Origin: a virus
Lineage: Duplodnaviria > Caudoviricetes
IMG/VR virus record: IMGVR_UViG_3300007754_000342
Span: 1-61,909 of that record
DNA length: 61,909 nt
Strand: one strand, 5' to 3'
The stretch's first letter is position 1, and the number at the start of each line of letters is the position of its first letter. Below, piece by piece: positions 1,534 through 49,750 of this stretch. Both the position numbers and the translations under genes were made by a program. The notes under the pieces were generated by a model. That model searched no databases. It was not told the origin of the DNA and was given only the letters and a program-made list of their open reading frames with translations.

Positions 1534-3915
1534 ATGGCAGAGAGAATCGTCAGTCCTGGTGTATTTACTCGTGAAAAAGACCTTTCATTTCTTCCACAAG
1601 CTATTGGTGAAATAGGAGCGGCAATTATTGGGCCAACCGTTAAGGGGCCTGCTTTTGTTCCGACTATTGTTCGAAATTTCAATGAGTTTGTGGATATTTT
1701 TGGTGATGTCACGAAAGATTTTTATACACCTTATACCGTAGAACAATATCTACGGAGTGCTGGTACGGTTACTATCGTTAGAGTTCTCGGAGAAGACGGA
1801 TATTCAAATGATGTAATACATTTATATGCCGTATCTGGTGCTGACGCCGCTACTGGTGTCTCACATTCACTTGCTTATCTCGCACCATCCGCTGGTGGTG
1901 TTAGTGGTACAGGTGATTTATCAGGTACAACAATAACTGGTGGAGATATAAATACAACTGATTCAGCACTATCAATTTCTGGTAGTGATGTTTCTGCGTA
2001 TTCTGTAAATGTATCGTTTAATACAAGTAGTGCTAATTACATAGAGAATTTATTTAGCTATGATGCACAAACTTCTACGGGTGCTGGTGGTACTTCCGTT
2101 CCAGTTTACTTATATAAAAACTTTAAAAATGCACAATCAACTGTTGCATGGGCAGGTACAGAACACATTTCTGCGTCTGTAGCTACTTTAGATTTTTCAA
2201 GTACAAACTATAGTAATGCTTCGACACCTACTGTTCAATCACAGATGATTAATAGTGCTAGATTTAATCTATTTAAAGTTAATACTCGTTCACATGGTTC
2301 TAATGTAAATGATGACAATTATGTTGTTATTTCTAATGTGAAAGCGGCTGGTAGTATTGCTGGTTCAGATTATGGTTCATTTTCACTTGCAGTACATAAA
2401 GTAGATGATGGTTCATTACTTGAATCATGGCATAACTTGAATTTTGATAAGTCAAGTACTAACTACCTACCAAGAGTAATTGGTGATAGATATGTAACAA
2501 TAGACACAAATGGTAAACTTACCTACAATGGTGATTGGCCAAATATGTCTAACCATATCTACATTAGTGATTATTCAGACCTTGAGTTTGCACCTAAGAC
2601 TGTTGTTCCAATGGGCCACTCAGCGTTATCAAATACAGTACCTGGTACTACTATTGTTGACGCGGCTAAATTGGTAACATCACAAACAAGTGAAACTGAA
2701 GAATTTGATACAACTATTCCTTATGGATTTGACTTTAACTATTATTACACATATAACAATAATGTTAAAGCTCACGATAACGTTTCTTACTTAGCACCAG
2801 TACCAACAGGTGCTGGAACTGGTAATAACGCTACGATGTCCTTGGAGAATATGAGTGGTCATAATTCTGCTTCACTTGCTAATGGATATGCTACTGGTTC
2901 TGCTAAAATTACATTGACTGGTTCACATATTAGTCAACGTAAATTTGCACTACCTTTTCAAGGCGGATTTGATGGAATGAATCCAGCTACATTGAAAAAG
3001 ACTGGAGCTAATATTACTTCAGCTAATGTTATGGGATTCGATTGTTCTTCAGCTACATCAATGGGAACTACAGTTTACAAGAAAGCTGTTAATGCTGTAA
3101 GTAACCCAGATGAGTTCGATATTAACTTACTTGTAACACCAGGTCTTGTACATGGTCTACATAGTAAAGTTACTTCAAGAGCTATGAATATGTGTGAAGA
3201 ACGTGGTGATGCTTTTTATGTAATGGATGCTTCCATACATGGTGAGAGTATCTCTACTATAACAAATCGTATATCTGCATTAGATACTAACTATGCAGCT
3301 GTATATTATCCTTGGGTTAAGATTGTAGATTCTGGTACTTCGTTACCAGTATGGGTTCCGCCTTCGGTTGTTCTACCTGGTGTTATTGCATATACCGACC
3401 AAGTAGCTCACGAATGGTTCGCACCTGCTGGTTTGAATAGAGGTGGATTAACTTCCGTTCTCGAAGCTGAAACCAGACTAACTCATGCAGAACGTGACGA
3501 CCTTTATGAAGATAGGGTTAATCCTATTGCTTCATTCCCAGGTCAAGGTGTTTGTGTATGGGGTCAGAAAACACTACAAGCTAAACCATCCGCATTGGAT
3601 AGAGTCAATGTACGTAGATTGTTAATTAGATTGAAGAAATTTATTGCTTCATCTTCAAGATACCTATTGTTCGAACAGAATACTGCTGGAACAAGGAATC
3701 GTTTCTTGAATATTGTCAATCCGTTCTTAGATTCAGTACAAGCTAATAGTGGTTTGAGTGCATTTAGAGTTGTCATGGACGAAACTAACAACACATCAGA
3801 TGTCGTTGATAGAAATCGTCTTGTTGGACAAATCTATATTCAACCTACGAGGACTGCAGAATTTATTGTTCTGGATTTCGTTGTACTCCCAACAGGAGCT
3901 ACATTTCCAGAGTAA
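1534..3915 (+). CDS. Contractile tail sheath protein (T4 gp18-like)
   Basis: SPGVFTREKD N-terminus; YYPWV, WFAPAG.NRG, WGQKTL, DRVNVRRLL, IQPTRTAEFI.LDF. Confidence 0.95.
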   Translation: MAERIVSPGVFTREKDLSFLPQAIGEIGAAIIGPTVKGPAFVPTIVRNFNEFVDIFGDVTKDFYTPYTVEQYLRSAGTVTIVRVLGEDGYSNDVIHLYAVSGADAATGVSHSLAYLAPSAGGVSGTGDLSGTTITGGDINTTDSALSISGSDVSAYSVNVSFNTSSANYIENLFSYDAQTSTGAGGTSVPVYLYKNFKNAQSTVAWAGTEHISASVATLDFSSTNYSNASTPTVQSQMINSARFNLFKVNTRSHGSNVNDDNYVVISNVKAAGSIAGSDYGSFSLAVHKVDDGSLLESWHNLNFDKSSTNYLPRVIGDRYVTIDTNGKLTYNGDWPNMSNHIYISDYSDLEFAPKTVVPMGHSALSNTVPGTTIVDAAKLVTSQTSETEEFDTTIPYGFDFNYYYTYNNNVKAHDNVSYLAPVPTGAGTGNNATMSLENMSGHNSASLANGYATGSAKITLTGSHISQRKFALPFQGGFDGMNPATLKKTGANITSANVMGFDCSSATSMGTTVYKKAVNAVSNPDEFDINLLVTPGLVHGLHSKVTSRAMNMCEERGDAFYVMDASIHGESISTITNRISALDTNYAAVYYPWVKIVDSGTSLPVWVPPSVVLPGVIAYTDQVAHEWFAPAGLNRGGLTSVLEAETRLTHAERDDLYEDRVNPIASFPGQGVCVWGQKTLQAKPSALDRVNVRRLLIRLKKFIASSSRYLLFEQNTAGTRNRFLNIVNPFLDSVQANSGLSAFRVVMDETNNTSDVVDRNRLVGQIYIQPTRTAEFIVLDFVVLPTGATFPE

Positions 3916-20235: not shown

Positions 20236-20754
20236 ATGAACAATAAGGTTACAATAATAGATAATTTTTATGACGAACCTTACGAAGTTAGAAGACATGC
20301 TTTACAACGTGACTATAAGAGTGGTAATTTTGTTGGTATGAGAACATCAGACGGGGTTTCCGAGGAAGTAGTCAATAAATTATCAGATTTAAATGTTATC
20401 AATGGTCATTTTGAATGGTCACCATCCGATAGTATAAAAATAGTTGATATTGATTATTCAATTAAATTATTTGGTATTATATTTTTATCACCACACGCTC
20501 CAATTAATTCTGGTATATCTTTTCATAGATATAAAGAACTTGAAATGGATAAATATAAATACGATGAACCTGCACACGAGTTGGTTAATGAATATGGTAC
20601 GGATTTTACAAAGTGGGATGAAGTTGACAGAGTAGGTAATGTTTTTAATAGATTGGTTATATATGAAACAAAGTATTATCATTCAACTACAAATTATTTT
20701 GGAAAAGATGTTTTAGATTCTCGATTAATACAACGTTTATATTTAAAAAAATGA
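20236..20754 (+). CDS. 2OG-Fe(II) oxygenase-like protein (DUF6445-like)
   Basis: IIDNFY..P..VR, L.P.AP..SG..F, GNVFNRLVIY, YHS...YFG, RL.Q. Confidence 0.65.
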   Translation: MNNKVTIIDNFYDEPYEVRRHALQRDYKSGNFVGMRTSDGVSEEVVNKLSDLNVINGHFEWSPSDSIKIVDIDYSIKLFGIIFLSPHAPINSGISFHRYKELEMDKYKYDEPAHELVNEYGTDFTKWDEVDRVGNVFNRLVIYETKYYHSTTNYFGKDVLDSRLIQRLYLKK

Positions 20755-22139
20755 AACCATTTAGTAATAGAATAGAGGGAATAGTTACAATAGGTTTATC
20801 GGATTGGGAACGTAAAGAATGTAGTTATATAAATATGGAACCAGAACCAGATATTTATTATTATGGTATGAAGTATTTTGCAGATTGGTATCATTTTGAT
20901 GATGATAGAAATATCGAATCTATTTTAAAAACACATGAACCAGATTTAATATTAACTATAGGTGGTGAGAAAGATAGATTTTTACATCTAAATAACTTGA
21001 CAGATAATATAAAAAGAAAATGGTTACATTTATCAGATAGAGATTGGTGGTCGTGGGTAACTGATATTGATAAAAGTTTACCACATACATTAAATGATAA
21101 GTGGTGGAAAGAAATGTTAGAACCAGATGATTCTTTGGTTTCTGTAATGACAACAGCGTACAAAATAGGTGATAAAATACATAGAACATACGATTCTATT
21201 AAGGAACAAAGTTATAAGAATTGGCAATGGGTTATTAATGACGATTCACCAGATAGAGATACTTGGAAAGAGTTAGAAAAGATAGCTTCAAATGATAGTA
21301 GAGTAAAAATTATAAGAAATGAGGGCAGAAGTCCTGTTTCTCGTATTGGTAGAAATAACTTTTTAGCCGCTACACAATGTGATGGAAAATATTTAGTTGA
21401 ATTAGACCACGATGATTCTTTAACAATTAATTGTATAGAAGATTTAATATATCCATTTAAAGAATTTGATGATGTTGGTATGACGTGGGGTGATTGTTGT
21501 GGTTATAATGTTGTTGATAATACTTGTAATGATTGGGGGCCTTGGTATGCCGGGAGATATGGACATAGATATTGGACAACATATCCAAGAGGTTATGGTA
21601 AAAAGTGGAAGGTTATGAGGTCTGCTAATATCAATCCCTTTACTATAAGAAGGTTGTGGTCAACGTTAAATGTACCTAAATGTTGGAATAAGGACGTTTA
21701 TTTTAAGATAGGTGGTCATAATACCAACGTAAATGTTACAGATGATTATGATTTGATTATAAGAATGTTTTTAGGTACAAGGATTGCTAGAGTACAAAAA
21801 CTATGTATTTTTCAAAACGATGATGGTACTAAAGATAGTATAGGTGGTCATATCAGACACAAATCTATACAACGTGCTATGAGACATCAACAACGATACT
21901 ATGAACGTAGAATCCATGAAAGATTTGAAGAGTTGGGCATAGATGATTGGTGTTGGGATAAAGAAAAAGATGAATCACAATATGAAATGTGGTTGTCAAA
22001 AAATGGTAATGAACGACCAGAAGAAACACCAGATATGGTTGCTAATTATATATCAGAACTAAAAGAGCCATTTGAAGAAATGATTGATTGGGAAACACCA
22101 GCCGAGGATGTAGGCCCAATTGAATGTGAAAAAAATTAA
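20751..22139 (+). CDS. Glycosyltransferase family 2 with N-terminal extension
   Basis: LVSVMTTAY, Q.Y.NWQWVINDDS, YLVELDHDD, DDYDLIIR. Confidence 0.85.
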   Translation: MKPFSNRIEGIVTIGLSDWERKECSYINMEPEPDIYYYGMKYFADWYHFDDDRNIESILKTHEPDLILTIGGEKDRFLHLNNLTDNIKRKWLHLSDRDWWSWVTDIDKSLPHTLNDKWWKEMLEPDDSLVSVMTTAYKIGDKIHRTYDSIKEQSYKNWQWVINDDSPDRDTWKELEKIASNDSRVKIIRNEGRSPVSRIGRNNFLAATQCDGKYLVELDHDDSLTINCIEDLIYPFKEFDDVGMTWGDCCGYNVVDNTCNDWGPWYAGRYGHRYWTTYPRGYGKKWKVMRSANINPFTIRRLWSTLNVPKCWNKDVYFKIGGHNTNVNVTDDYDLIIRMFLGTRIARVQKLCIFQNDDGTKDSIGGHIRHKSIQRAMRHQQRYYERRIHERFEELGIDDWCWDKEKDESQYEMWLSKNGNERPEETPDMVANYISELKEPFEEMIDWETPAEDVGPIECEKN

Positions 22140-23684: not shown

Positions 23685-24732
23685 TTTATATTTAAAGGCT
23701 GAATCAAAATTTGGAATTAAAACTCTAGCAAAAAGATTATCTGTAAAAACTGGTACCATAGAAAGATGGAAATTATTGAATAATGTTCCCGAACATTATA
23801 TGTTTGATTTGTATGAAATTTTAGGAATGAATCTTGATTATGAAAAATTTGACTATAAACAAAAAGACCAATTCTTTACATCAGATAAAACTGCCAATTT
23901 CTGTTTTACAATATTTAAAAATAAATTAAAAGAACTTGGAGTAGATGATAATAATTATACATATCTTGAACCATCTGCTGGTGATGGTAGTTTTTATAAT
24001 TTGATGCCAAAGGATAGAAGAGTTGGTATTGATATTGAACCACGAATTGATAATATAATAGAACACAATTACTTATCATGGTTACCTGAAGGTGATACTA
24101 AATTTTTGGTAGTTGGTAATCCGCCATTTGGGTTGAGAGGAAATAAAGCATTAAGATTTTTAAACCATTCTTCTATGAATATTGGTGCAGAATTTGTTGG
24201 ATTTATATTACCACAAATATTTAATAGTCAAGGTAGGGGTTCATGTATGAAACGAGTACAAGACTTAAATCTAATTCACACAGTAGAAGTTCCAAATGAA
24301 TTTTATTATCCAGATAATACTAAAGTAAATGTGAATTGTATTTTCCAAGTTTGGTCTAAAAACTTTAAAATTGAATCAGTAGATGAAAGTTGTTCGGACT
24401 ACATCAAGTTGTATTCATTATCTGATGGTAATAGCTCTGGTAGTAAACGAAATGTAAATATGTTATATGAATGTGATTTATATTTACCCATCACTTGTTT
24501 TGGTAAGGATAATATGAAGGTGGTAAATAATTTTGATGATTTACCATTAAGGCGTGGTTATGGAATTAAAATTTTAAAAGATAATAAACGAGTCGTAGAC
24601 AAATTCAATGAAATAGATTGGTCTAAAGAATCTTTTTCATCTACAAATAGTGCATTAAATCTTAGATTTGACATTATAGAAAATGCATTAATAAAGAAAG
24701 GAATAAAAAATAAAAAGAACAAATTTTTTTAA
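23662..24732 (+). CDS. Amino (N6-adenine) DNA methyltransferase with N-terminal HTH
   Basis: DQFFT, LEPSAGDGSF (motif I), VVGNPPFG (motif IV); IKTLAKRLSVKTGTIERW HTH-like; AAGGAG RBS before TTG. Confidence 0.85.
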   Translation: MLKNSLINLYLKAESKFGIKTLAKRLSVKTGTIERWKLLNNVPEHYMFDLYEILGMNLDYEKFDYKQKDQFFTSDKTANFCFTIFKNKLKELGVDDNNYTYLEPSAGDGSFYNLMPKDRRVGIDIEPRIDNIIEHNYLSWLPEGDTKFLVVGNPPFGLRGNKALRFLNHSSMNIGAEFVGFILPQIFNSQGRGSCMKRVQDLNLIHTVEVPNEFYYPDNTKVNVNCIFQVWSKNFKIESVDESCSDYIKLYSLSDGNSSGSKRNVNMLYECDLYLPITCFGKDNMKVVNNFDDLPLRRGYGIKILKDNKRVVDKFNEIDWSKESFSSTNSALNLRFDIIENALIKKGIKNKKNKFF

Positions 24733-24743
24733 AAAAGCTTGAA

Positions 24744-24770
24744 CGTTTTGGCTATTTGTAATATATATAT
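24744..24770 (+). promoter_or_regulatory. Putative class B promoter upstream of the large ncRNA
   Basis: AAAAAAGCTTGAA-CGTTT-N14-ATATATAT. Confidence 0.5.
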
Positions 24771-24793
24771 ATTTATATCGTTAGATATTAAGA

Positions 24794-25226
24794 TTTTTGA
24801 TAATTTGAAAACGGAAAGTAGAGAGAGTAATTAACTCTCTATGGGATTGCCTGAATAATGAGTATACTTTGAAGCTCATAAGGGAATCTACCAATGGATG
24901 TGGTGTCCGACTACCTGCTAGAATGGTAGGTTGCAAATGTCTCGTAGACATACGAATTGGAATGTACTTTCAGAACATATAAAGAACACGATTCTTTGAC
25001 CTTGTTGTGAGTAAGGGTAAAACCGAAATCTCACTTTATGACCGAATAATCTAATCTTGGAGAGATAAGGTAATGGTACAGAGGTTGTACTCAATCGATG
25101 ATAGTTAACCACTATTGAGAGAATCATCGTAACTGATGGGTATTAGGTACAAGGTAAAAAAATCCAAGCTGATAGTTGTAGGTAATCGTTAATCCTACAT
25201 CCCCAAATTTTCAAAAATTATAAAAA
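24794..25226 (+). ncRNA. Large (~430 nt) multi-helix non-coding RNA with a pseudoknot
   Basis: No credible ORF; more than 12 complementary helices, including closing stem 24794-24811/25208-25226, GAAAGTA/TACTTTC, CCAAT/ATTGG, ACCTTGT/ACAAGGT and crossing CTTGGA/TCCAAG. Confidence 0.75.
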
Positions 25227-25291
25227 AGGGTTCAACCGATTTTTAGTTTCCACTATATACAAACTTAAAAAACTACAGAACCCTTTTTTTT
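25222..25291 (+). terminator. Long terminator-like hairpin
   Basis: AAAAAAGGGTTC...GAACCCTTTTTTTT with an inner TTTTTAGTTT/AAACTTAAAAA stem. Confidence 0.6.
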
Positions 25292-25308
25292 ATTTAAATA
25301 AAGGTTAT

Positions 25309-25923
25309 ATGTTAGACGTATCGTCACATAAAAATGTAGAAAATGTTATAAGATTCTTTTTGATGTATTTACCGCCACGAGGAGCAGAATCAATACTCGA
25401 TGTCGGTGGTGGTAGTACAGCTCCATATAAAGGCGTTCTACAAACTCGTACAAAAAAATATAAAAATTTAGATATAAGACCAGGTGATAGAGTTGATTAT
25501 TGCCAAGATATTATAGAAGGTACAAATTTTAAAGATAAACAATGGGATTGGGTTTGGTGTTCAGAAACACTTGAACATATACCACAACAATATATGAAAA
25601 CTTTTGTTGATGAAATTTGTAGGATAAGTAAAAATATTGTTTGGACATTTCCACTACCACACTCACCAGCGTTCCACGATGACCCAGGCCATAGTGAAGT
25701 TATAGTTGATATGAAATCATATGATACGGATTTCAATGTTATTGATAAAACTACAAAAACTGGAAAAGGAATCTGGATATTTGCAAGAAAAGATAAAGAA
25801 ATTCAAGTATCTAAAAGAGGAATAATCCAAGAAGGATATTCAGAAGATACTCTACCATTCGTAGTAATAAATTATAAGTGTTATGATAGAAATAATACTA
25901 AAAAAGCTTGGACGTTTACATAA
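25309..25923 (+). CDS. Class I SAM-dependent methyltransferase
   Basis: ILDVGGG, WDWVWCSETLEHIP. Confidence 0.85.
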   Translation: MLDVSSHKNVENVIRFFLMYLPPRGAESILDVGGGSTAPYKGVLQTRTKKYKNLDIRPGDRVDYCQDIIEGTNFKDKQWDWVWCSETLEHIPQQYMKTFVDEICRISKNIVWTFPLPHSPAFHDDPGHSEVIVDMKSYDTDFNVIDKTTKTGKGIWIFARKDKEIQVSKRGIIQEGYSEDTLPFVVINYKCYDRNNTKKAWTFT

Positions 25924-26006: not shown

Positions 26007-26777
26007 ATGGATATTGATGCAATACGGAAACGTTTAAATCAGTTACAAACCACAAACACTCGTACTTCAAATTTATGGAAACCGCAACCAGGAAAGCAAG
26101 TTGTTAGAATTGTACCTAATAAGTACAATAAAACTTCACCTTTCATTGAGTTGTATTTTCATTATGATTTGGGCGGACGAACCTACCTATCACCAATTTC
26201 TTTTGGAAGACCAGACCCTGTTGAAGAGTTTGCTGACAAATTGAAATCAAGTGGTAATCGTGATGACTGGAGACTTGGTAAGAAACTTGAAGCTAAGATG
26301 AGAACTTTTGCACCTGTACTTGTACGTGGAGCAGAAAATGATGGTATTAAGTTTTGGGGATTTGGTAAAACAGTCTACCAAGAATTACTCTCGGTTATTG
26401 CTGACCCAGATTATGGTGATATTACAGATGCAGAAAATGGTCGTGATGTCGTAGTTGAGTTTAAGACTGCAGAAGAAACAGGAAAATCATTTCCTACTAC
26501 TGCTATTCGTGTTAAACCAAATCAGACACCAATTTCAGATGATAAACAAACAATGGAAGGAGCATTAGAAAACCAAGTTGATTTAAATACGGTTTATAAT
26601 GAACGTTCTTATGATGAACTTACAGAAGTTCTGAATGAGTGGTTGAATCCATCTGAAGATTCTGACGCGAATGGTACAGCTACTGAAACGGTAGATAAAC
26701 CTACAAAGGAAGCTTTGAAGGAAACTACTACAGTAGATGATGCCTCATCCGCGTTTGACGAATTATTCAATCGGTAA
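26007..26777 (+). CDS. Single-stranded DNA-binding protein (gp32-like)
   Basis: WKP..G..VVRIVP, PF.ELYFHY, FWGFGK, DITD...GRD, acidic tail ending AFDELF. Confidence 0.85.
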   Translation: MDIDAIRKRLNQLQTTNTRTSNLWKPQPGKQVVRIVPNKYNKTSPFIELYFHYDLGGRTYLSPISFGRPDPVEEFADKLKSSGNRDDWRLGKKLEAKMRTFAPVLVRGAENDGIKFWGFGKTVYQELLSVIADPDYGDITDAENGRDVVVEFKTAEETGKSFPTTAIRVKPNQTPISDDKQTMEGALENQVDLNTVYNERSYDELTEVLNEWLNPSEDSDANGTATETVDKPTKEALKETTTVDDASSAFDELFNR

Positions 26778-30470: not shown

Positions 30471-32477
30471 ATGAAATTTAAGTTGTCGGAAAATTTTATA
30501 AATAAGTATAAGAGGCGAAAAGCCCCATTTGGTTTTAATGGTTTAGGTGAGTTAGTTTATATGAGAACCTATTCAAGAATTAAAGAAGATGGTAAAAACG
30601 AAAGATGGTGGGAAACTGTTCAACGAGTAGTAGAAGGAACTTATTCAATGCAAATGAATTGGATTGAATCACATCAATTAGGGTGGAATCCCTGGCAAGC
30701 TCAAAAGTCGGCACAAGAAATGTATGACCGAATTTTTAATATGAAGTTCTTGCCGCCTGGTCGTGGTCTGTGGGCAATGGGAACGCCCATTACAGAAGAC
30801 AAGGGTTTATATGCCGCCCTAAACAATTGTGCTTTCGTATCTACGAAGACACTAAGAGAAGATTATGCTAAACCTTTTTGTTTCCTTATGGATGCAAGTA
30901 TGTTGGGTGTTGGTGTAGGTTTCGATACAAAAGGTGCTGGAGAAATAGTAATCAAAGGTATTCAGAAAGATAGAGATGAACAAGTTTATCAGATACCAGA
31001 TACTCGTGAGGGATGGGTAGAATCAGTTCGTCTATTATTGGAAAGTTATTTTCATGGTCAAGCACCAGTGAAATTTGACTATACAAAGATACGAGGTGCA
31101 GGTGAACCAATTACTGGATTTGGTGGTGTCGCAAGTGGTTATGAACCATTAGAAGAAGTACACGACGCAATCAGAAAAGTTCTTGATAATAACGCAGGAG
31201 AACCAATTACAATCACTACAATTGTTGATATTATGAATCTTATAGGTAAATGTGTTGTAGCAGGTAATGTTAGAAGAACTGCTGAGATTGTATTTGGAGA
31301 CCCACATTCAGATGAATATTTAGATTTAAAAAATTATAAAGTTAATAAACATAGAGAACAATATGGTTGGACATCAAACAATTCTATATTTGCAAAACTT
31401 GGTATGGATTATACCGAAGTATCAAAAAGAATTGTAGACAATGGTGAACCAGGTTTAGCTTGGTTGAAAAATATGAGAAAATATTCTCGTATGAAAAATG
31501 GTGGAGATAATAAAGACCATAGAGTTGCAGGTGGAAATCCTTGTTTAGAACAATCATTAGAGAGTTATGAGTTATGTTGTTTAGTAGAAACTTTTCCAAG
31601 TAATCACGATAGTTATGACGATTATGCTAGAACATTAAAATATGCTTATCTATATGCTAAAACTGTAACACTTGGTAAGACTCATTGGTCAGATACAAAT
31701 CGTGTGATGTTAAGAAATAGAAGAATCGGTTGTTCTGTTAGTGGTGTCGCACAATTTATTACTAATCGTGGATTAAATGAATTAAAGAATTGGTTAAATA
31801 ATGGTTATGATGTAATACAAGATTGGGATAAAATGTATTCAGATTGGTTTGCAGTACCAAGAAGTATAAAAACTACTTCAGTAAAGCCATCAGGTACAGT
31901 TTCACTATTAGCAGGAGCGACTCCAGGATTACATTACCCTGAGAGTCGTTTTTACATTAGGAGAATAAGGGTTTCAAAACATTCAGAATTATTAGAACCA
32001 TTGAAAAAAGCAAAGTATAAAGTAGAACCAGCGGTTGGTTCAGAAGATACGACAATGGTCGTAGAAGTTCCTGTTGATGTTGGTGAAGGAATAAGAACAG
32101 CGGCGGAATTATCCATATGGGAACAATTCCATTTAGCCGCATTTCTTCAAAGACATTGGGCAGACAATCAAGTAAGTTGTACTGTAACATTTGACCCAGA
32201 GTCAGAGGGTTCAGTTATTCCACAAGTACTAAATTATTTTCAATATCACTTGAAAGGAATTTCATTACTACCAAGACATGATTATGGTGCCTACCCACAA
32301 ATGCCATATGAGTCTATTGATGAAAAAGAATACAATAAACAAGTTAAGAGACTTGGTAAGTTATCATTTGGAGTTATCAAACACGAAGAGGCTGATATTG
32401 ATAAATTTTGCAATAATGATGTATGTGCAGTAATTCCGATGACTGGTGATAATGACAACCAAGAATATGCTAATTAA
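30471..32477 (+). CDS. nrdJ: Class II (adenosylcobalamin-dependent) ribonucleotide reductase, RTPR type
   Basis: RTYSR, PPGRGLW, NNCAF, GNVRRTAE, NPCLEQ.L, TSVKPSGTVSLL, C-terminal C...C pair. Confidence 0.93.
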   Translation: MKFKLSENFINKYKRRKAPFGFNGLGELVYMRTYSRIKEDGKNERWWETVQRVVEGTYSMQMNWIESHQLGWNPWQAQKSAQEMYDRIFNMKFLPPGRGLWAMGTPITEDKGLYAALNNCAFVSTKTLREDYAKPFCFLMDASMLGVGVGFDTKGAGEIVIKGIQKDRDEQVYQIPDTREGWVESVRLLLESYFHGQAPVKFDYTKIRGAGEPITGFGGVASGYEPLEEVHDAIRKVLDNNAGEPITITTIVDIMNLIGKCVVAGNVRRTAEIVFGDPHSDEYLDLKNYKVNKHREQYGWTSNNSIFAKLGMDYTEVSKRIVDNGEPGLAWLKNMRKYSRMKNGGDNKDHRVAGGNPCLEQSLESYELCCLVETFPSNHDSYDDYARTLKYAYLYAKTVTLGKTHWSDTNRVMLRNRRIGCSVSGVAQFITNRGLNELKNWLNNGYDVIQDWDKMYSDWFAVPRSIKTTSVKPSGTVSLLAGATPGLHYPESRFYIRRIRVSKHSELLEPLKKAKYKVEPAVGSEDTTMVVEVPVDVGEGIRTAAELSIWEQFHLAAFLQRHWADNQVSCTVTFDPESEGSVIPQVLNYFQYHLKGISLLPRHDYGAYPQMPYESIDEKEYNKQVKRLGKLSFGVIKHEEADIDKFCNNDVCAVIPMTGDNDNQEYAN

Positions 32478-45189: not shown

Positions 45190-46581
45190 ATGTCAAAGAA
45201 GAAAATATTGTTATTATCAGATGATTTGAGAATGTCATCTGGGGTCGGAACGATGTCTCGTGAATTTGTAAGAGGTACATTGCATCATTATGATTGGGTT
45301 CAAGTTGGTGGAGCAATAAAACATCCAGAAGAAGGTAAAGTTGCCGACATATCAGAAGAGTATGGTAAAGATATGGGTGTTGATGACGCTTATTGTAAAG
45401 TGTATTCAGTAAGTGGTTATGGTAACCCTGATATAGTTAGACATTTGATGTCTACTGAAAAACCAGATGCAATCCTACACTATACAGACCCAAGATTTTG
45501 GAATTGGTTATATCAAATGGAACACGAGATACGACAAGAGATACCAATATTCTATTATAATATTTGGGATGATTTACCATATCCAAGATGGAATGAGAAT
45601 TTTTATGAGTCTTGTGATTTGATTATGAATATATCTAAACAGACACATAATATTGTAGAAAACGTTTGTCAGAATAAACCAAGAACAGATACGGATAATA
45701 CTTACATACCACATGGAATAAGTGAAGTAGAGTTCTTTCCAATGACAGATGAACAAAAAAATTCTGAAAAATACGTAACATTCAAAAATCAGTTGACGAG
45801 GGGTAAAGAGAAGGATTTTATTTTATTTTATAACGCTCGTAATATAAAACGTAAGATGGTTGGTGATATTATTTTAGCGTATAATAAATTTTGTGGTATG
45901 TTACCAGAAGAACAAGCTAATAAATGTTTATTATTAATGCACACAACACCTGTTGACCAACATGGTACATCTATACCTGCGGTAGTAAAGGAATTATGTA
46001 CATATGGTGACGTAGCCTTTTCAGACCAAAAGATATCACCAGAAGCTATGAACTTTTTATATAATATGGCAGATTGTACTATATTGATTTCATCAAATGA
46101 GGGTTTTGGATTGTCTGGTGCAGAATCTATTATGTGTGGTACTCCAGTTATTTTAAATGTTACTGGTGGAATGCAAGACCAGTGTGGATTTAAGTTAGAT
46201 GGTAAGTATCTTACATACAAAGATTATTCAGAAGTACATTCACTTCATGATTATCGTAAGTGGGAAAATAATGATAGATTAACTCATGGAGAGTGGGTAA
46301 AACCAGTTTGGCCAAGAACACGTTCTTTGATGGGTTCACCACCAACACCATATATTTTTGATGATAGATGTGATTGGTATGATGTTGCAGATAGAATTAA
46401 GGAATGGTATGATGTTGGTGCTGAAGAAAGAAAGAGATGTGGTAAGATTGGACACGAATGGGCGTGTAGTGATGATTCAATGATGAGTTCACGTGCTATG
46501 TCTCAAAATTTTATAGACCACATGGATACAATTATGAAATCGTGGACACCAAGAAAACGTTATAGTATTTATAAAGTATAG
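45190..46581 (+). CDS. Glycosyltransferase family 4 (GT-B)
   Basis: LSDD.R..SGVG, YIPHG, RNI.RK, SSNEGFGLS..E.I.CGTP. Confidence 0.9.
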   Translation: MSKKKILLLSDDLRMSSGVGTMSREFVRGTLHHYDWVQVGGAIKHPEEGKVADISEEYGKDMGVDDAYCKVYSVSGYGNPDIVRHLMSTEKPDAILHYTDPRFWNWLYQMEHEIRQEIPIFYYNIWDDLPYPRWNENFYESCDLIMNISKQTHNIVENVCQNKPRTDTDNTYIPHGISEVEFFPMTDEQKNSEKYVTFKNQLTRGKEKDFILFYNARNIKRKMVGDIILAYNKFCGMLPEEQANKCLLLMHTTPVDQHGTSIPAVVKELCTYGDVAFSDQKISPEAMNFLYNMADCTILISSNEGFGLSGAESIMCGTPVILNVTGGMQDQCGFKLDGKYLTYKDYSEVHSLHDYRKWENNDRLTHGEWVKPVWPRTRSLMGSPPTPYIFDDRCDWYDVADRIKEWYDVGAEERKRCGKIGHEWACSDDSMMSSRAMSQNFIDHMDTIMKSWTPRKRYSIYKV

Positions 46582-49670: not shown

Positions 49671-49750
49671 GAGTGTGTAGCCCGATTTGGTAAGGGGGCG
49701 GACTGTAAATCCGTTTAACCATCAAGTAGGTTCGAATCCTACCACACTCA
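49671..49750 (+). tRNA. trnY: tRNA-Tyr (GTA)
   Basis: Acceptor GAGTGTG/CACACTC+A, D-arm with TGG, anticodon arm GCGGA-CTGTAAA-TCCGT, T-arm GTAGG-TTCGAAT-CCTAC; CCA not encoded. Confidence 0.93.

Follow-up and report, generated by a model that had tools for sequence, protein, structure and literature searches.

The window analysed here is the whole stretch of phage DNA, 61,909 nt in length. Within it, a gap of 576 nt separates an open reading frame that ends at 24732 from one that starts at 25309. A first-pass annotation had placed in this gap a large, multi-domain and pseudoknotted non-coding RNA that interrupts no gene. Both parts of this description held, as no gene is interrupted between the two boundaries and comparison of 94 distinct phage copies bears out the folded RNA. 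The gap encodes a single, strongly conserved non-coding RNA of approximately 430 nt, with its body at 24790-25216, and the RNA together with its 5' hairpin and terminator spans about 515 nt. A coding reading of the gap was rejected: a 69-residue minus-strand reading frame is open in only one of the 94 homologues, and the homologue lengths differ by a number other than a multiple of three in 65 of the 94, which argues against coding. The minimum free energy of 24790-25230 was -109.2 kcal/mol (z = -2.84), and none of 100 shuffled sequences folded equally well. The features of the locus are listed below.

24739-24767, plus strand: promoter-like site (TTGAAC, 17 nt, TATATA), read from the sequence
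24775-24788, plus strand: 5' hairpin AUAUC GUUA GAUAU, directly before the conserved body
24804-24811 pairing with 25208-25215, plus strand: closing stem P0, from per-sequence duplexes
24814-24971, plus strand: domain 1, the first manA-like core, from a sub-threshold Rfam match and covarying helices
24819-24841, plus strand: P1 hairpin of domain 1, helix UAGAGAG/CUCUCUA (24819-24825/24835-24841)
24843-24847 pairing with 25199-25203, plus strand: manA-type closing helix GGGAU/AUCCC, from RNAalifold and covariation
24850-24884, plus strand: core hairpin of domain 1 with a GAAUAA/UAAGG internal loop; flanking pairs covary
24891-24895/24956-24960, plus strand: junction stem of domain 1, bearing three hairpins
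24896-24908 (loop UGUGGUG), 24911-24929 and 24942-24955 (loop GACA), plus strand: junction hairpins of domain 1
24981-24997, plus strand: linker hairpin AAAGAA/UUCUUU between the cores
24999-25155, plus strand: domain 2, the second manA-like core, closed by ACCUUGU/ACAAGGU, from the Rfam manA match and covariation
25007-25034, plus strand: P1' of domain 2, with a conserved 18-nt loop
25041-25071, plus strand: core hairpin of domain 2 with GAAUAA/UAAGG; flanking pairs covary
25056-25061 (loop of the domain-2 core hairpin) pairing with 25163-25168, plus strand: pseudoknot CUUGGA/UCCAAG, from covariation
25074-25079/25140-25145, plus strand: junction stem of domain 2, bearing three hairpins
25081-25092, about 25093-25121 (loop UUAACCA) and 25124-25139, plus strand: junction hairpins of domain 2
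25178-25198, plus strand: last hairpin, GUAGG, loop UAAUCGUUAAU, CCUAC; 100% paired
25222-25291, plus strand: terminator-like long hairpin (AAAAAAGGGUUC ... GAACCCUUUUUUUU), folded, with a near-invariant interior
25309-25923, plus strand: methyltransferase gene (Pfam Methyltransf_11, E 2.5e-5)
26007-26777, plus strand: gene for a gp32-like single-strand DNA binding protein (Pfam gp32, E 6.7e-12; PHROG)

A cmscan search against Rfam returned a known family, which confirms the RNA and removes the earlier suggestion that it might represent a new class. The 3' half, at 25010-25203, matched manA (RF01745) with 58.8 bits (E 1.9e-12), above the gathering score of 55.2, and all 30 related loci scanned gave manA scores of 62-73 bits. 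The 5' half matched the same family at 24819-24948 with 19.8 bits (E 0.0094) in a 751-nt search of 24650-25400, while a second, domain-1 match was obtained in one of 14 relatives (22.2 bits in a larger search). A covariance model built on domain 1 (R1) did not recover the manA RNA of either P-SSM2 or P-SSM4 at a significant score, even after the filters were switched off; the best overlapping match scored 4.7 bits. Therefore, the manA nature of domain 1 rests on the sub-threshold Rfam score and on motif order. The hallmarks of domain 1 follow the order seen in the P-SSM4 manA RNA, namely a hairpin, GGGA, UG, 2-3 bp, GAAUAA, a hairpin, UAAGG and a junction with a GUGGUG loop. The RNA is best read as a manA family member that carries an internal duplication, which amounts to a nested insertion, and the Rfam manA model covers only half of it. 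Two manA-like cores in one fold is a form that we did not find in the literature searched; supplementary alignments may bear on its novelty.

Other families suggested for the RNA fared less well. A divergent ribozyme recalling RNase P found no footing, with no RNase P match in either Rfam search. RNase P, ROOL, GOLLD, OLE, HEARO, group I and II introns and tmRNA gave no gathering-level match in the window and no match at E up to 10 within 24650-25400. An RNA of the ROOL/GOLLD kind was thus wrong as to family, with no Rfam match to either, but apt in spirit, in that a preprint reports cages formed by manA RNAs (10.64898/2026.07.01.735769). A blastn search of the gap against 50,697 phage records gave no match. 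A 23-nt pattern matched bacterial and archaeal genomes twice in 596 Gb, neither match having nhmmer or Rfam support; as approximately one chance match is expected in 596 Gb, both were taken as chance, and L168 likewise.

The architecture was evaluated in the 94 distinct phage sequences (set A3) and in a set of 35 sequences (A2). Across the whole structure, 93.5% of cells in A3 were paired, compared with 36-46% in slid controls, and two-sided changes occurred in 63 of 101 pairs, compared with 16-28 in slid controls. Neither observed value was reached in any of 500 shuffles. An all-against-all column covariation screen was swamped by phylogenetic transitions and was left out of the results. For the outermost stem, proposed earlier as 24794-24811/25208-25226, the inner part is what stood (P0), forming a duplex of at least 7 bp in all 35 sequences of A2 with compensating variants such as UGAAAAU/AUUUUCA, UGAAAUC/GAUUUCA and UUGGAAU/AUUCCAA. 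Column pairing at P0 was only 78-83% because the alignment shifts there. Duplex energies of P0 strands averaged -10.1 kcal/mol for own partners, -8.4 for swapped partners and -4.5 for shuffled ones, the median rank being uninformative in this A-U rich, closely related set.

Inside P0, the manA-type closing helix reads GGGAU/AUCCC in 78 sequences, GGAAU/AUUCC in 15 and carries one G-U pair in the last, so that 94 of 94 are compatible. Its strands are separated by 350 nt and belong to different domains, and their relative placement corresponds to that of the outer helix GGGAG/CUCCC in the manA consensus of Rfam. Both cores are therefore enclosed by this one helix, whose GGGAU strand belongs to the 5' half while AUCCC comes after the last hairpin. 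A competing pairing, GGAUU/AAUCU, is formed in 95% of cells with no two-sided change, in contrast to GGGAU/AUCCC, which is formed in 100% and compensated in 15 sequences. The manA likeness of both domains, and the closing helix common to them, had been missed in the earlier reading. The linker hairpin, proposed there as AAAGAA/TTCTTT, folds in 35 of 35 sequences with compensating variants such as AAUAGAA/UUCUAUU and UAAGAA/UUCUUA. The last hairpin, given earlier as TGTAGG/CCTACA, is confirmed as GUAGG/CCUAC; two of its pairs show two-sided changes, in 46 and 39 of the 94 sequences, and cmscan aligned it at high posterior probability with the last hairpin of the manA model.

Several of the helices that the first-pass annotation had read by eye within domain 1 survived comparison across the 94 sequences. 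All five pairs of the CCAAT/ATTGG junction stem change on both sides, the three hairpins placed on this junction were recovered, and ATGAG/CTCAT is real as AUGAGU/GCUCAU; a CCU/GGG helix is likewise supported. The middle junction hairpin folds in 50 of 53 distinct segments. AGAGAGT/ACTCTCT was 79% paired and lay two positions out of register with the true helix, UAGAGAG/CUCUCUA, and the proposed domain-1 closing helix GAAAGUA/UACUUUC is weak, with 78-85% pairing. The helices of domain 2 pair in 92-100% of cells save for one misaligned 2-bp segment. The closing helix ACCTTGT/ACAAGGT is corroborated by the variants CCUUG/CAAGG, CUCUA/UAGAG, CUUCA/UGAAG and CUCUC/GAGAG, and GTGAG/CTCAC stands in the 94-sequence comparison. 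CGATGAT/ATCATCG, CTAAT/ATTAG and GTACA/TGTAC were only 46%, 68% and 76% paired, respectively. The four unsupported helices are in conflict with others that have better support and are paired in 98-100% of cells.

The pseudoknot that had been proposed between 25056-25061 and 25163-25168 was compatible in 94 of 94 sequences and fully complementary in 91. Its variants were CUCAGA/UCUGAG (45), CUUGGA/UCCAAG (31), CUCUGA/UCAGAG (8), CUUAGA/UCUAAG (4), CUUCGA/UCGAAG (3) and forms with one G-U pair (3); it is 100% paired, and two-sided changes occur at two of its pairs, in 40 and 43 sequences. When cmscan aligns the RNA to the model, 25163-25168 falls at the position of the penultimate manA hairpin, most of which is deleted, leaving this stretch single-stranded. 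Other single-stranded stretches are invariant, including AAUGUAC and the 18-nt loop of P1'.

The arrangement bears on whether two independent manA units are simply placed in tandem, each folding and acting alone in the manner of tandem riboswitch aptamers. Two GAAUAA/UAAGG cores and two three-hairpin junctions do follow each other in series. However, the closing helix, the last hairpin, the UGGUG loop and the AACCA loop each occur only once; the closing helix has its 5' strand in domain 1 and its 3' strand after domain 2, and the outer stem encloses both cores. Moreover, both cores occur in all 80 new loci that are not cut by the locus end, and no single-core form of the lineage was seen among them. 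We consider two independent units very improbable. Instead, a single manA-type closing helix and the outer stem would enclose two modules, each made up of a GAAUAA/UAAGG core hairpin followed by a junction with three hairpins. The second module would occupy the usual site of the penultimate manA hairpin, and the single strand left over there would pair with the second core hairpin's loop to give the pseudoknot.

The two-core RNA was found on more than 140 marine phage contigs. The phage studied here encodes RecA, and its nearest cultured relative is the Microcystis phage Mel-JY01 (52% identity in RecA and 45% in PolB). Of the 132 loci with sufficient DNA, 120 have a gp32 gene (SSB) downstream of the RNA on the same strand, the median distance from the RNA end being 191 nt. 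The gene directly downstream varies and may be a methyltransferase, gp32, or an open reading frame of 183 or 103 residues. Among the 120 loci with gp32 downstream, the methyltransferase separates gp32 from the RNA in 10; elsewhere it follows another gene without the RNA. A tie between methyltransferase and RNA was rejected, as ten methyltransferase loci (L013-L022) have no manA match and the intergenic gap is absent in the nine of these with enough upstream DNA.

The claim that the RNA has a promoter and a terminator of its own gained comparative support. The promoter-like site at 24739-24767 escaped a promoter scan because the scan rule demands T at position 6 of the second hexamer. Related loci totalling 1.14 Mb contain the 10-mer TTGAACGTTT 18 times, with 11 copies 20-90 nt upstream of the RNA and five between the RNA terminator and gp32. 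A 5' hairpin of at least 5 bp and variable sequence is present in 70 of 76 distinct upstream flanks; with 189 of 400 random windows as background, this enrichment is only moderate. Downstream of the RNA, a hairpin plus T-run, counted by a purpose-made rule, is present in 64 of 88 distinct flanks compared with 6 of 400 random windows, and the outer stems of the terminator covary among loci. A stricter terminator scan found none at 25222-25291 because it limits loops to 3-8. We rejected the terminator loop as a repeated promoter motif, since the window contains a single copy and the 10-nt core shows no enrichment, with 5 matches against 6.4 expected. Taken together, a putative sigma-70-like promoter would drive transcription through the small 5' hairpin to an intrinsic terminator, which points to a separate gene placed upstream of the SSB-RecA replication module.

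The stretch 24816-25294 is covered by RNA-library contigs that come from four studies. Run X5 yielded a 212-nt contig identical to part of the RNA, at a word depth of 322.6, and a 313-nt contig identical to part of gp32, at a depth of 4.28. We treat these contigs as weak evidence, since contigs cannot prove transcription. In the four RNA runs, there was no cover of the upstream gene and hardly any of the methyltransferase gene, and this lack of cover was not counted as evidence.

A different account of the same locus makes the two-core RNA a cis-regulatory leader. It would respond to a metabolite or protein and thereby decide whether transcription passes the terminator at 25222-25291 into the methyltransferase, gp32 and recA. 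In Weinberg et al. 2010 (PMC2864571), manA is rated cis-regulatory and a probable riboswitch. The constant placement of the RNA upstream of gp32 could reflect regulation rather than shared ancestry, the methyltransferase start codon lies approximately 18 nt past the terminator T-run with no promoter-like site between them in the window, and a 642-nt RNA-library contig runs from the RNA through the terminator into gp32, which is compatible with read-through. Against this account, we found no pairing by which the terminator and the conserved fold would exclude each other; the stems of the terminator are long and self-contained. Loci lacking the methyltransferase have a promoter-like motif and a 5' hairpin between terminator and gp32, and the conserved block stops sharply at the closing stem, with two unrelated terminator types after it. 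A near-complete relative of 180.8 kb and phage Mel-JY01 retain the replication module without a manA match. Nor is manA known to have a ligand. On this balance, we regard a leader role as rather doubtful.

Another candidate is a protein-binding RNA that would sequester or scaffold a protein of phage or host, such as SSB, a translational repressor or an RNase, its structure serving protein recognition rather than RNA-RNA assembly. The position of the two-core RNA beside an SSB gene is constant. Gp32 of phage T4 is known to bind a structured leader of its own mRNA. The manA RNA of P-SSM2 follows regA, a translational repressor gene, and the single strands noted above (AAUGUAC, the P1' loop) are invariant. 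We nevertheless hold this reading to be improbable, as manA RNAs elsewhere adjoin the unrelated genes pstS, purL and hsp20 and the conserved complementary loops are more simply explained as RNA-RNA contacts.

The explanation towards which we lean, with moderate confidence, is that of a stand-alone two-core manA RNA with its own promoter and terminator, whose function would be architectural and which would form a pseudo-dimer or an RNA-only particle rather than act as a metabolite-sensing leader. According to the preprint (10.64898/2026.07.01.735769, July 2026), manA RNAs form RNA-only pentamers, decamers and a 60-mer cage in vitro, held together by the kissing loops L5-L7', L3-L8' and L8-L9'. 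Assembly was seen at high RNA and Mg concentrations, and the authors claim no cellular function. By analogy with these single-core RNAs, the two-core RNA probably has an architectural role based on assembly and is less likely to be a riboswitch. The loop contacts and pseudoknot may join the two cores within one chain, as a pseudo-dimer, or link chains into an RNA-only particle during infection, and a metabolite-sensing leader role is not apparent. A bolder form of this proposal, which we put forward only as a tentative possibility, is that the manA RNA-cage family has here given rise to a natural fused double protomer, with two covalently joined manA cores that share out the contact loops, UGGUG on one and AACCA on the other. 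The phage would produce it as an abundant stand-alone transcript, and in infected cells it would assemble into an RNA-only particle whose subunits are pseudo-symmetric. If true, it would be the RNA counterpart of tandem-duplicated capsid and cage proteins, and manA RNAs would be architectural RNAs and not riboswitches.

Comparison with the manA RNAs of P-SSM4 and P-SSM2 serves to highlight what is shared and what is new. Shared features are the above-gathering match at 25010-25203, the outer helix GGGA(G/U)/(C/A)UCCC, the GAAUAA/UAAGG core hairpin (present twice here, at 24850-24884 and 25041-25071), a three-hairpin junction (here two, between which the GUGGUG and ACCA loops are divided), a last hairpin with a GGUA...UAAUCC-type loop, and a marine phage origin. 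Unlike these RNAs, which are approximately 190 nt in length with one core, the RNA described here is approximately 430 nt in length with two cores. UGUGGUG is confined to domain 1 and AACCA to domain 2, where it is carried on the second hairpin and not the third; the closing helix encloses two cores; the long penultimate hairpin is replaced by domain 2 and the pseudoknotting single strand; and an outer stem and linker hairpin are added. The manA RNAs of P-SSM4 and P-SSM2 scored 184 and 182 bits, follow a coding gene by approximately 15-35 nt and lack a second core. The neighbour of the two-core RNA is the SSB gene and not a metabolic gene, and the phage studied here is not a T4-like cyanomyovirus of the Kyanoviridae.

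The self-assembling manA RNAs belong to the same Rfam family, and complementary loops are common to them and the two-core RNA. On a provisional mapping of the loop names onto the Rfam consensus, both also bring the loop of the core hairpin into contact with the site of the penultimate hairpin. The constructs of the preprint (10.64898/2026.07.01.735769) are single-core RNAs of less than 200 nt studied in vitro, while the RNA reported here has two cores. The word 'tandem' is absent from the main text of that preprint, and the sole match to 'duplicat' there refers to duplicate particles. ROOL and GOLLD are large phage-associated RNAs that form RNA-only cages, as its introduction describes. They resemble the present RNA in being large, structured phage non-coding RNAs with genes of their own, and the RNA described here may likewise form an RNA-only multimer, but sequence and fold are unrelated, and neither the gathering-level search of the window nor the search of the gap at E up to 10 matched them. 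The tandem glycine riboswitch offers another tandem, pseudo-dimeric architecture. It also carries two similar modules per transcript that may dock, but here the modules are nested in one closing helix, and neither ligand nor expression platform was identified.

The manA RNA has been an orphan riboswitch candidate since 2010, with RNA-only cages reported in vitro in 2026. The locus offers a much larger natural form of manA with unusually rich covariation, and the comparative evidence suggests that a manA-type RNA can be a separate gene; for this lineage at least, that speaks against the leader model. Even as a monomeric leader, the two-core RNA would be a well-supported new architectural variant of an Rfam family. 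The occurrence of the same loop types in different cores of one chain also provides a direct test of how manA contacts evolve. The UGGUG loop of domain 1, at 24899-24905, and the AACCA loop of domain 2, at 25105-25111, are present once each per molecule, near-invariant and complementary. In this UGGUG-AACCA contact, no pair showed two-sided changes in one register, and covariation is blind to pairing within as opposed to between chains. The pair flanking the two loops is G-U in 26 of 35 sequences, G-C in four, A-U in three and unpaired in two, and one group of four sequences has changed both loops.

A gathering-level Rfam 15 scan of the whole window returned two matches only, a tRNA gene and a manA RNA, and a permissive Rfam scan of the gap upstream of the methyltransferase gene added a second, weaker manA match.

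24819-24948: manA RNA match of the permissive gap scan, 19.8 bits, E 0.0094
25010-25203: manA RNA (RF01745), 58.8 bits (cut-off 55.2), E 1.9e-12
49671-49750: tRNA gene, 53.7 bits; its variable region carries an insertion

The first-pass annotation had described a large two-domain RNA here, of the ROOL/GOLLD kind, a divergent ribozyme or a new class. The positions of the two manA matches identify its domain 2 as a manA RNA and its domain 1 as a weaker manA-like element, and the permissive scan of the gap found nothing credible for RNase P, ROOL, GOLLD, OLE, HEARO, introns or tmRNA. Rfam manA matches were obtained in all 30 related loci scanned (62-73 bits), always covering domain 2 only. A covariance model derived from 43 domain-1 sequences found, within the window, itself and the domain-2 core at 11.1 bits and nothing else; it did not find the manA RNAs of phages P-SSM2 and P-SSM4, filters off included. 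The manA nature of domain 1 by itself is the weak point of the assignment. We are highly confident that the window RNA is a two-core manA-family RNA.

The gap measures 576 nt, between the end of the preceding ORF (24732) and the start of the methyltransferase ORF (25309). Folding of 24790-25230 gave -109.2 kcal/mol (z = -2.84), a value equalled by none of 100 shuffles. A 69-aa minus-strand ORF in the gap is open in just one of 94 homologues, and the gap is therefore regarded as non-coding. The manA family is known; its large, widespread two-core variant, apparently new, is very well supported by covariation. Neither a two-core nor a tandem manA RNA was described in the literature searched, though supplementary alignments or figures of the 2010 paper (Weinberg et al., PMC2864571) and of a July 2026 preprint (10.64898/2026.07.01.735769) might hold such members; in the main text of the preprint the word "tandem" is absent, and the one match to "duplicat" concerns duplicate particles.

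Comparison with single-core manA RNAs clarified how the two cores are arranged. P-SSM4 (184 bits) and P-SSM2 (182 bits) each carry one manA RNA of about 190 nt, and none was found in Syn9. The P-SSM4 RNA starts 15 nt past the pstS stop and that of P-SSM2 lies downstream of regA, within about 35 nt, leaving no space for a second core in either. In domain 1 of the window RNA, the first hairpin and the outer-helix 5' strand are joined by a GAAUAA/UAAGG core and by a junction with a UGUGGUG loop on its first hairpin. Domain 2 occupies the place of the manA penultimate hairpin and brings another hairpin, core and junction, this one with a UUAACCA loop on its second hairpin; after domain 2 come the last hairpin and the outer-helix 3' strand. 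This order makes the window RNA a single manA-type fold in which a second core is nested, rather than two independent units.

RNAalifold on an alignment of 35 distinct copies paired GGGAU (24843-24847), directly 3' of the first domain-1 hairpin, with AUCCC (25199-25203), directly 3' of the last hairpin. The outer helix GGGAG/CUCCC of the Rfam manA consensus occupies the same positions; the square brackets of the consensus line denote, in WUSS notation, an outer nested helix and not a pseudoknot. Across 94 distinct copies this helix reads GGGAU/AUCCC in 78, GGAAU/AUUCC in 15 and contains one G-U in the remaining sequence. The full structural model was then evaluated on both alignments.

Table. 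Support for the full structural model (101-102 pairs, pseudoknot included).
35 distinct copies: 94.1% of cells paired (slid, 32-46%); two-sided changes at 46 pairs (slid, 10-17); reached by 0/500 shuffles on four of five measures
94 distinct copies: 93.5% of cells paired (slid, 36-46%); two-sided changes at 63/101 pairs (slid, 16-28); reached by 0/500 shuffles

The exception on the smaller alignment was the fifth measure, a tally of further pair types, which 258 of 500 shuffles reached. The proposed pseudoknot (25056-25061/25163-25168) was borne out: 91 of the 94 sequences are fully complementary there, in five versions, and the other three have one G-U. Four other helices and one register of the first-pass annotation failed when evaluated in this way; alone they had 74% of cells paired, and their covarying-pair count was reached by 473 of 500 shuffles. 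The domain-2 closing stem covaries, the inner closing stem (24804-24811/25208-25215) retains at least 7 bp in 35/35 sequences with compensating versions, the linker hairpin folds in 35/35, and 50 of 53 distinct segments form the variable middle hairpin of junction 1. GAAAG/CUUUC, the would-be closing helix of domain 1, is doubtful at 78-85% paired and, if formed, would cross the closing helix.

The window phage is a myovirus with a tail sheath gene, represented by a 61.9-kb piece of an uncultured virus record (estimated completeness 30%). Its replication module, all on the + strand, encodes a gp32-like SSB, RecA, an exonuclease, a DnaB-like helicase, a class II ribonucleotide reductase and a family B polymerase, and its closest cultured relative is Microcystis phage Mel-JY01 (RecA 52%, PolB 45% identity). 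The reductase (B12-dependent; 30471-32477) is accompanied in the phage by two glycosyltransferases (20751-22139 and 45190-46581).

A methyltransferase protein search yielded 21 viral loci, 11 of which contain the homologous gap at 76-92% identity; the other 10 gave no manA match, and the 9 of these with enough upstream DNA have no gap there. A 23-nt domain-2 pattern retrieved 57 viral loci and a domain-1 pattern at least 117 stretches. Among the matches listed, 88 loci were new (86 from the viral scan with the domain-1 pattern, 2 from a genome scan); nhmmer recovered the full two-core RNA in 80 of them, 5 were cut by the locus end and 3 gave no match. One viral locus (L168) and two genome-collection matches, lacking both nhmmer and Rfam matches, were taken as chance. 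No single-core copies were seen among the matches listed. Conservation starts sharply near 24790 and ends near 25215, with flanks that vary between loci. The manA match is absent from one near-complete relative (180.8 kb) and from Mel-JY01 and occurs exactly once in each of two other relatives, indicating an accessory element in part of the phage group.

The RNA has the look of a separate gene, with the following feature upstream of it.

24739-24767, + strand: promoter-like site (TTGAAC, 17 nt, TATATA), then a small hairpin at 24775-24788

Within 1.14 Mb of loci the 10-mer TTGAACGTTT was counted 18 times: 11 copies lie just upstream of the RNA, 5 between terminator and gp32, and 2 elsewhere. 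The promoter-like motif found upstream of the RNA, AGCTTGAACGTTT ... TATATAT, recurs before gp32 in five loci (L031, L047, L051, L056, L067), 84-87 nt past the RNA end; next come a small hairpin and an A-U rich leader that contains GGAG. The arrangement suggests that one promoter class with a 5' hairpin serves both the RNA and gp32. Read by eye, 16/16 representative spacers have a long hairpin downstream of the RNA, 13 of them with a subsequent T-run; by a fixed rule, terminator-like sites were present in 64 of the 88 distinct flanks and in 6 of 400 random windows. Two unrelated terminator types occur, and their stems covary. The terminator-like hairpin at 25222-25291 (also in L023, L024, L031, L032, L038 and L047) has covarying outer stems and an interior, some 40 nt long, that is nearly invariant and more conserved than much of the RNA; the hairpin occurs once in the window and may be a further functional element, either an RNA 3' domain or a protein site. 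In six other loci (L030, L033, L037, L050, L053, L063) the RNA and gp32 are separated by a further conserved element, about 70 nt long, closed by GGAAAGU/ACUUUCC and followed by the second terminator type, GGUGGUGAG ... CUCACCACC plus a T-run; no Rfam family reached gathering level in L030, L033, L037 and L063 (L053 was scanned at E up to 3, L050 for tRNAs).

A gp32 homologue lies downstream on the same strand in 120 of 132 loci with enough DNA (median 191 nt), the methyltransferase gene intervening in 10 of these 120; the other 12 have no detectable gp32. Part of the stretch is present in 20 public runs from ten studies, of which 16 are recorded as RNA; the share of sampled words does not exceed 0.36. 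Expression was checked in four RNA runs from four studies, all kept as contigs, which cover 24816-25294. One run contained a 212-nt contig identical to 24924-25135 at a word depth of 322.6 and a 313-nt contig matching part of gp32 exactly at a depth of 4.28, a hint of RNA abundance in libraries that may include DNA and whose contigs carry no start, end or strand. A 642-nt contig from another run joins RNA and terminator to gp32, without the methyltransferase gene, which allows some read-through past the terminator.

The separate-gene look, the varying downstream gene and the lack of any visible structure competing with the terminator lead us to favour, with modest confidence, a stand-alone architectural RNA that would act as a pseudo-dimer or a multimer. 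The manA family was proposed as a cis-regulatory riboswitch candidate in marine phages (Weinberg et al. 2010), and a leader or riboswitch, rather unlikely, stays a serious rival on account of the tight gp32 link and the read-through contig.

The architectural reading has a precedent in the cryo-EM preprint, which reports pentamer-based decamers, octamers and a 60-mer icosahedral cage built from single-core manA RNAs. Kissing loops between molecules (L5-L7', L8-L9', L3-L8') and a GNRA contact (L6-P6') are reported to join them. The two-core variant bears directly on a new question, the role of manA assemblies. Loop names were mapped by helix count in the Rfam consensus alone, with putative correspondence to the preprint numbering: L5 is the GUGGUG loop, L6 the GNRA loop, L7 the ACCA loop, L3 the core-hairpin loop and L8 the penultimate hairpin. 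Mapped in this way, the window RNA, compared with self-assembling manA, retains a single L5-type loop in domain 1 and a single ACCA loop in domain 2, and its pseudoknot would be an L3-to-L8-position contact. The L5-type and ACCA loops are complementary, the flanking pair being G-U in 26, G-C in 4, A-U in 3 and unpaired in 2 of 35 sequences, and both are altered together in one four-sequence group; covariation cannot say whether such contacts form within or between chains.

The methyltransferase gene (25309-25923 in the window) lies directly 3' of the DNA polymerase gene in other relatives (L014-L017, L021, L022), behaving like a mobile accessory gene. Locus L059 carries a tRNA-Gly (UCC) at 3511-3583, about 70 nt downstream of the RNA, with a post-RNA hairpin that has no T-run, and the same tRNA sequence is present in L065.
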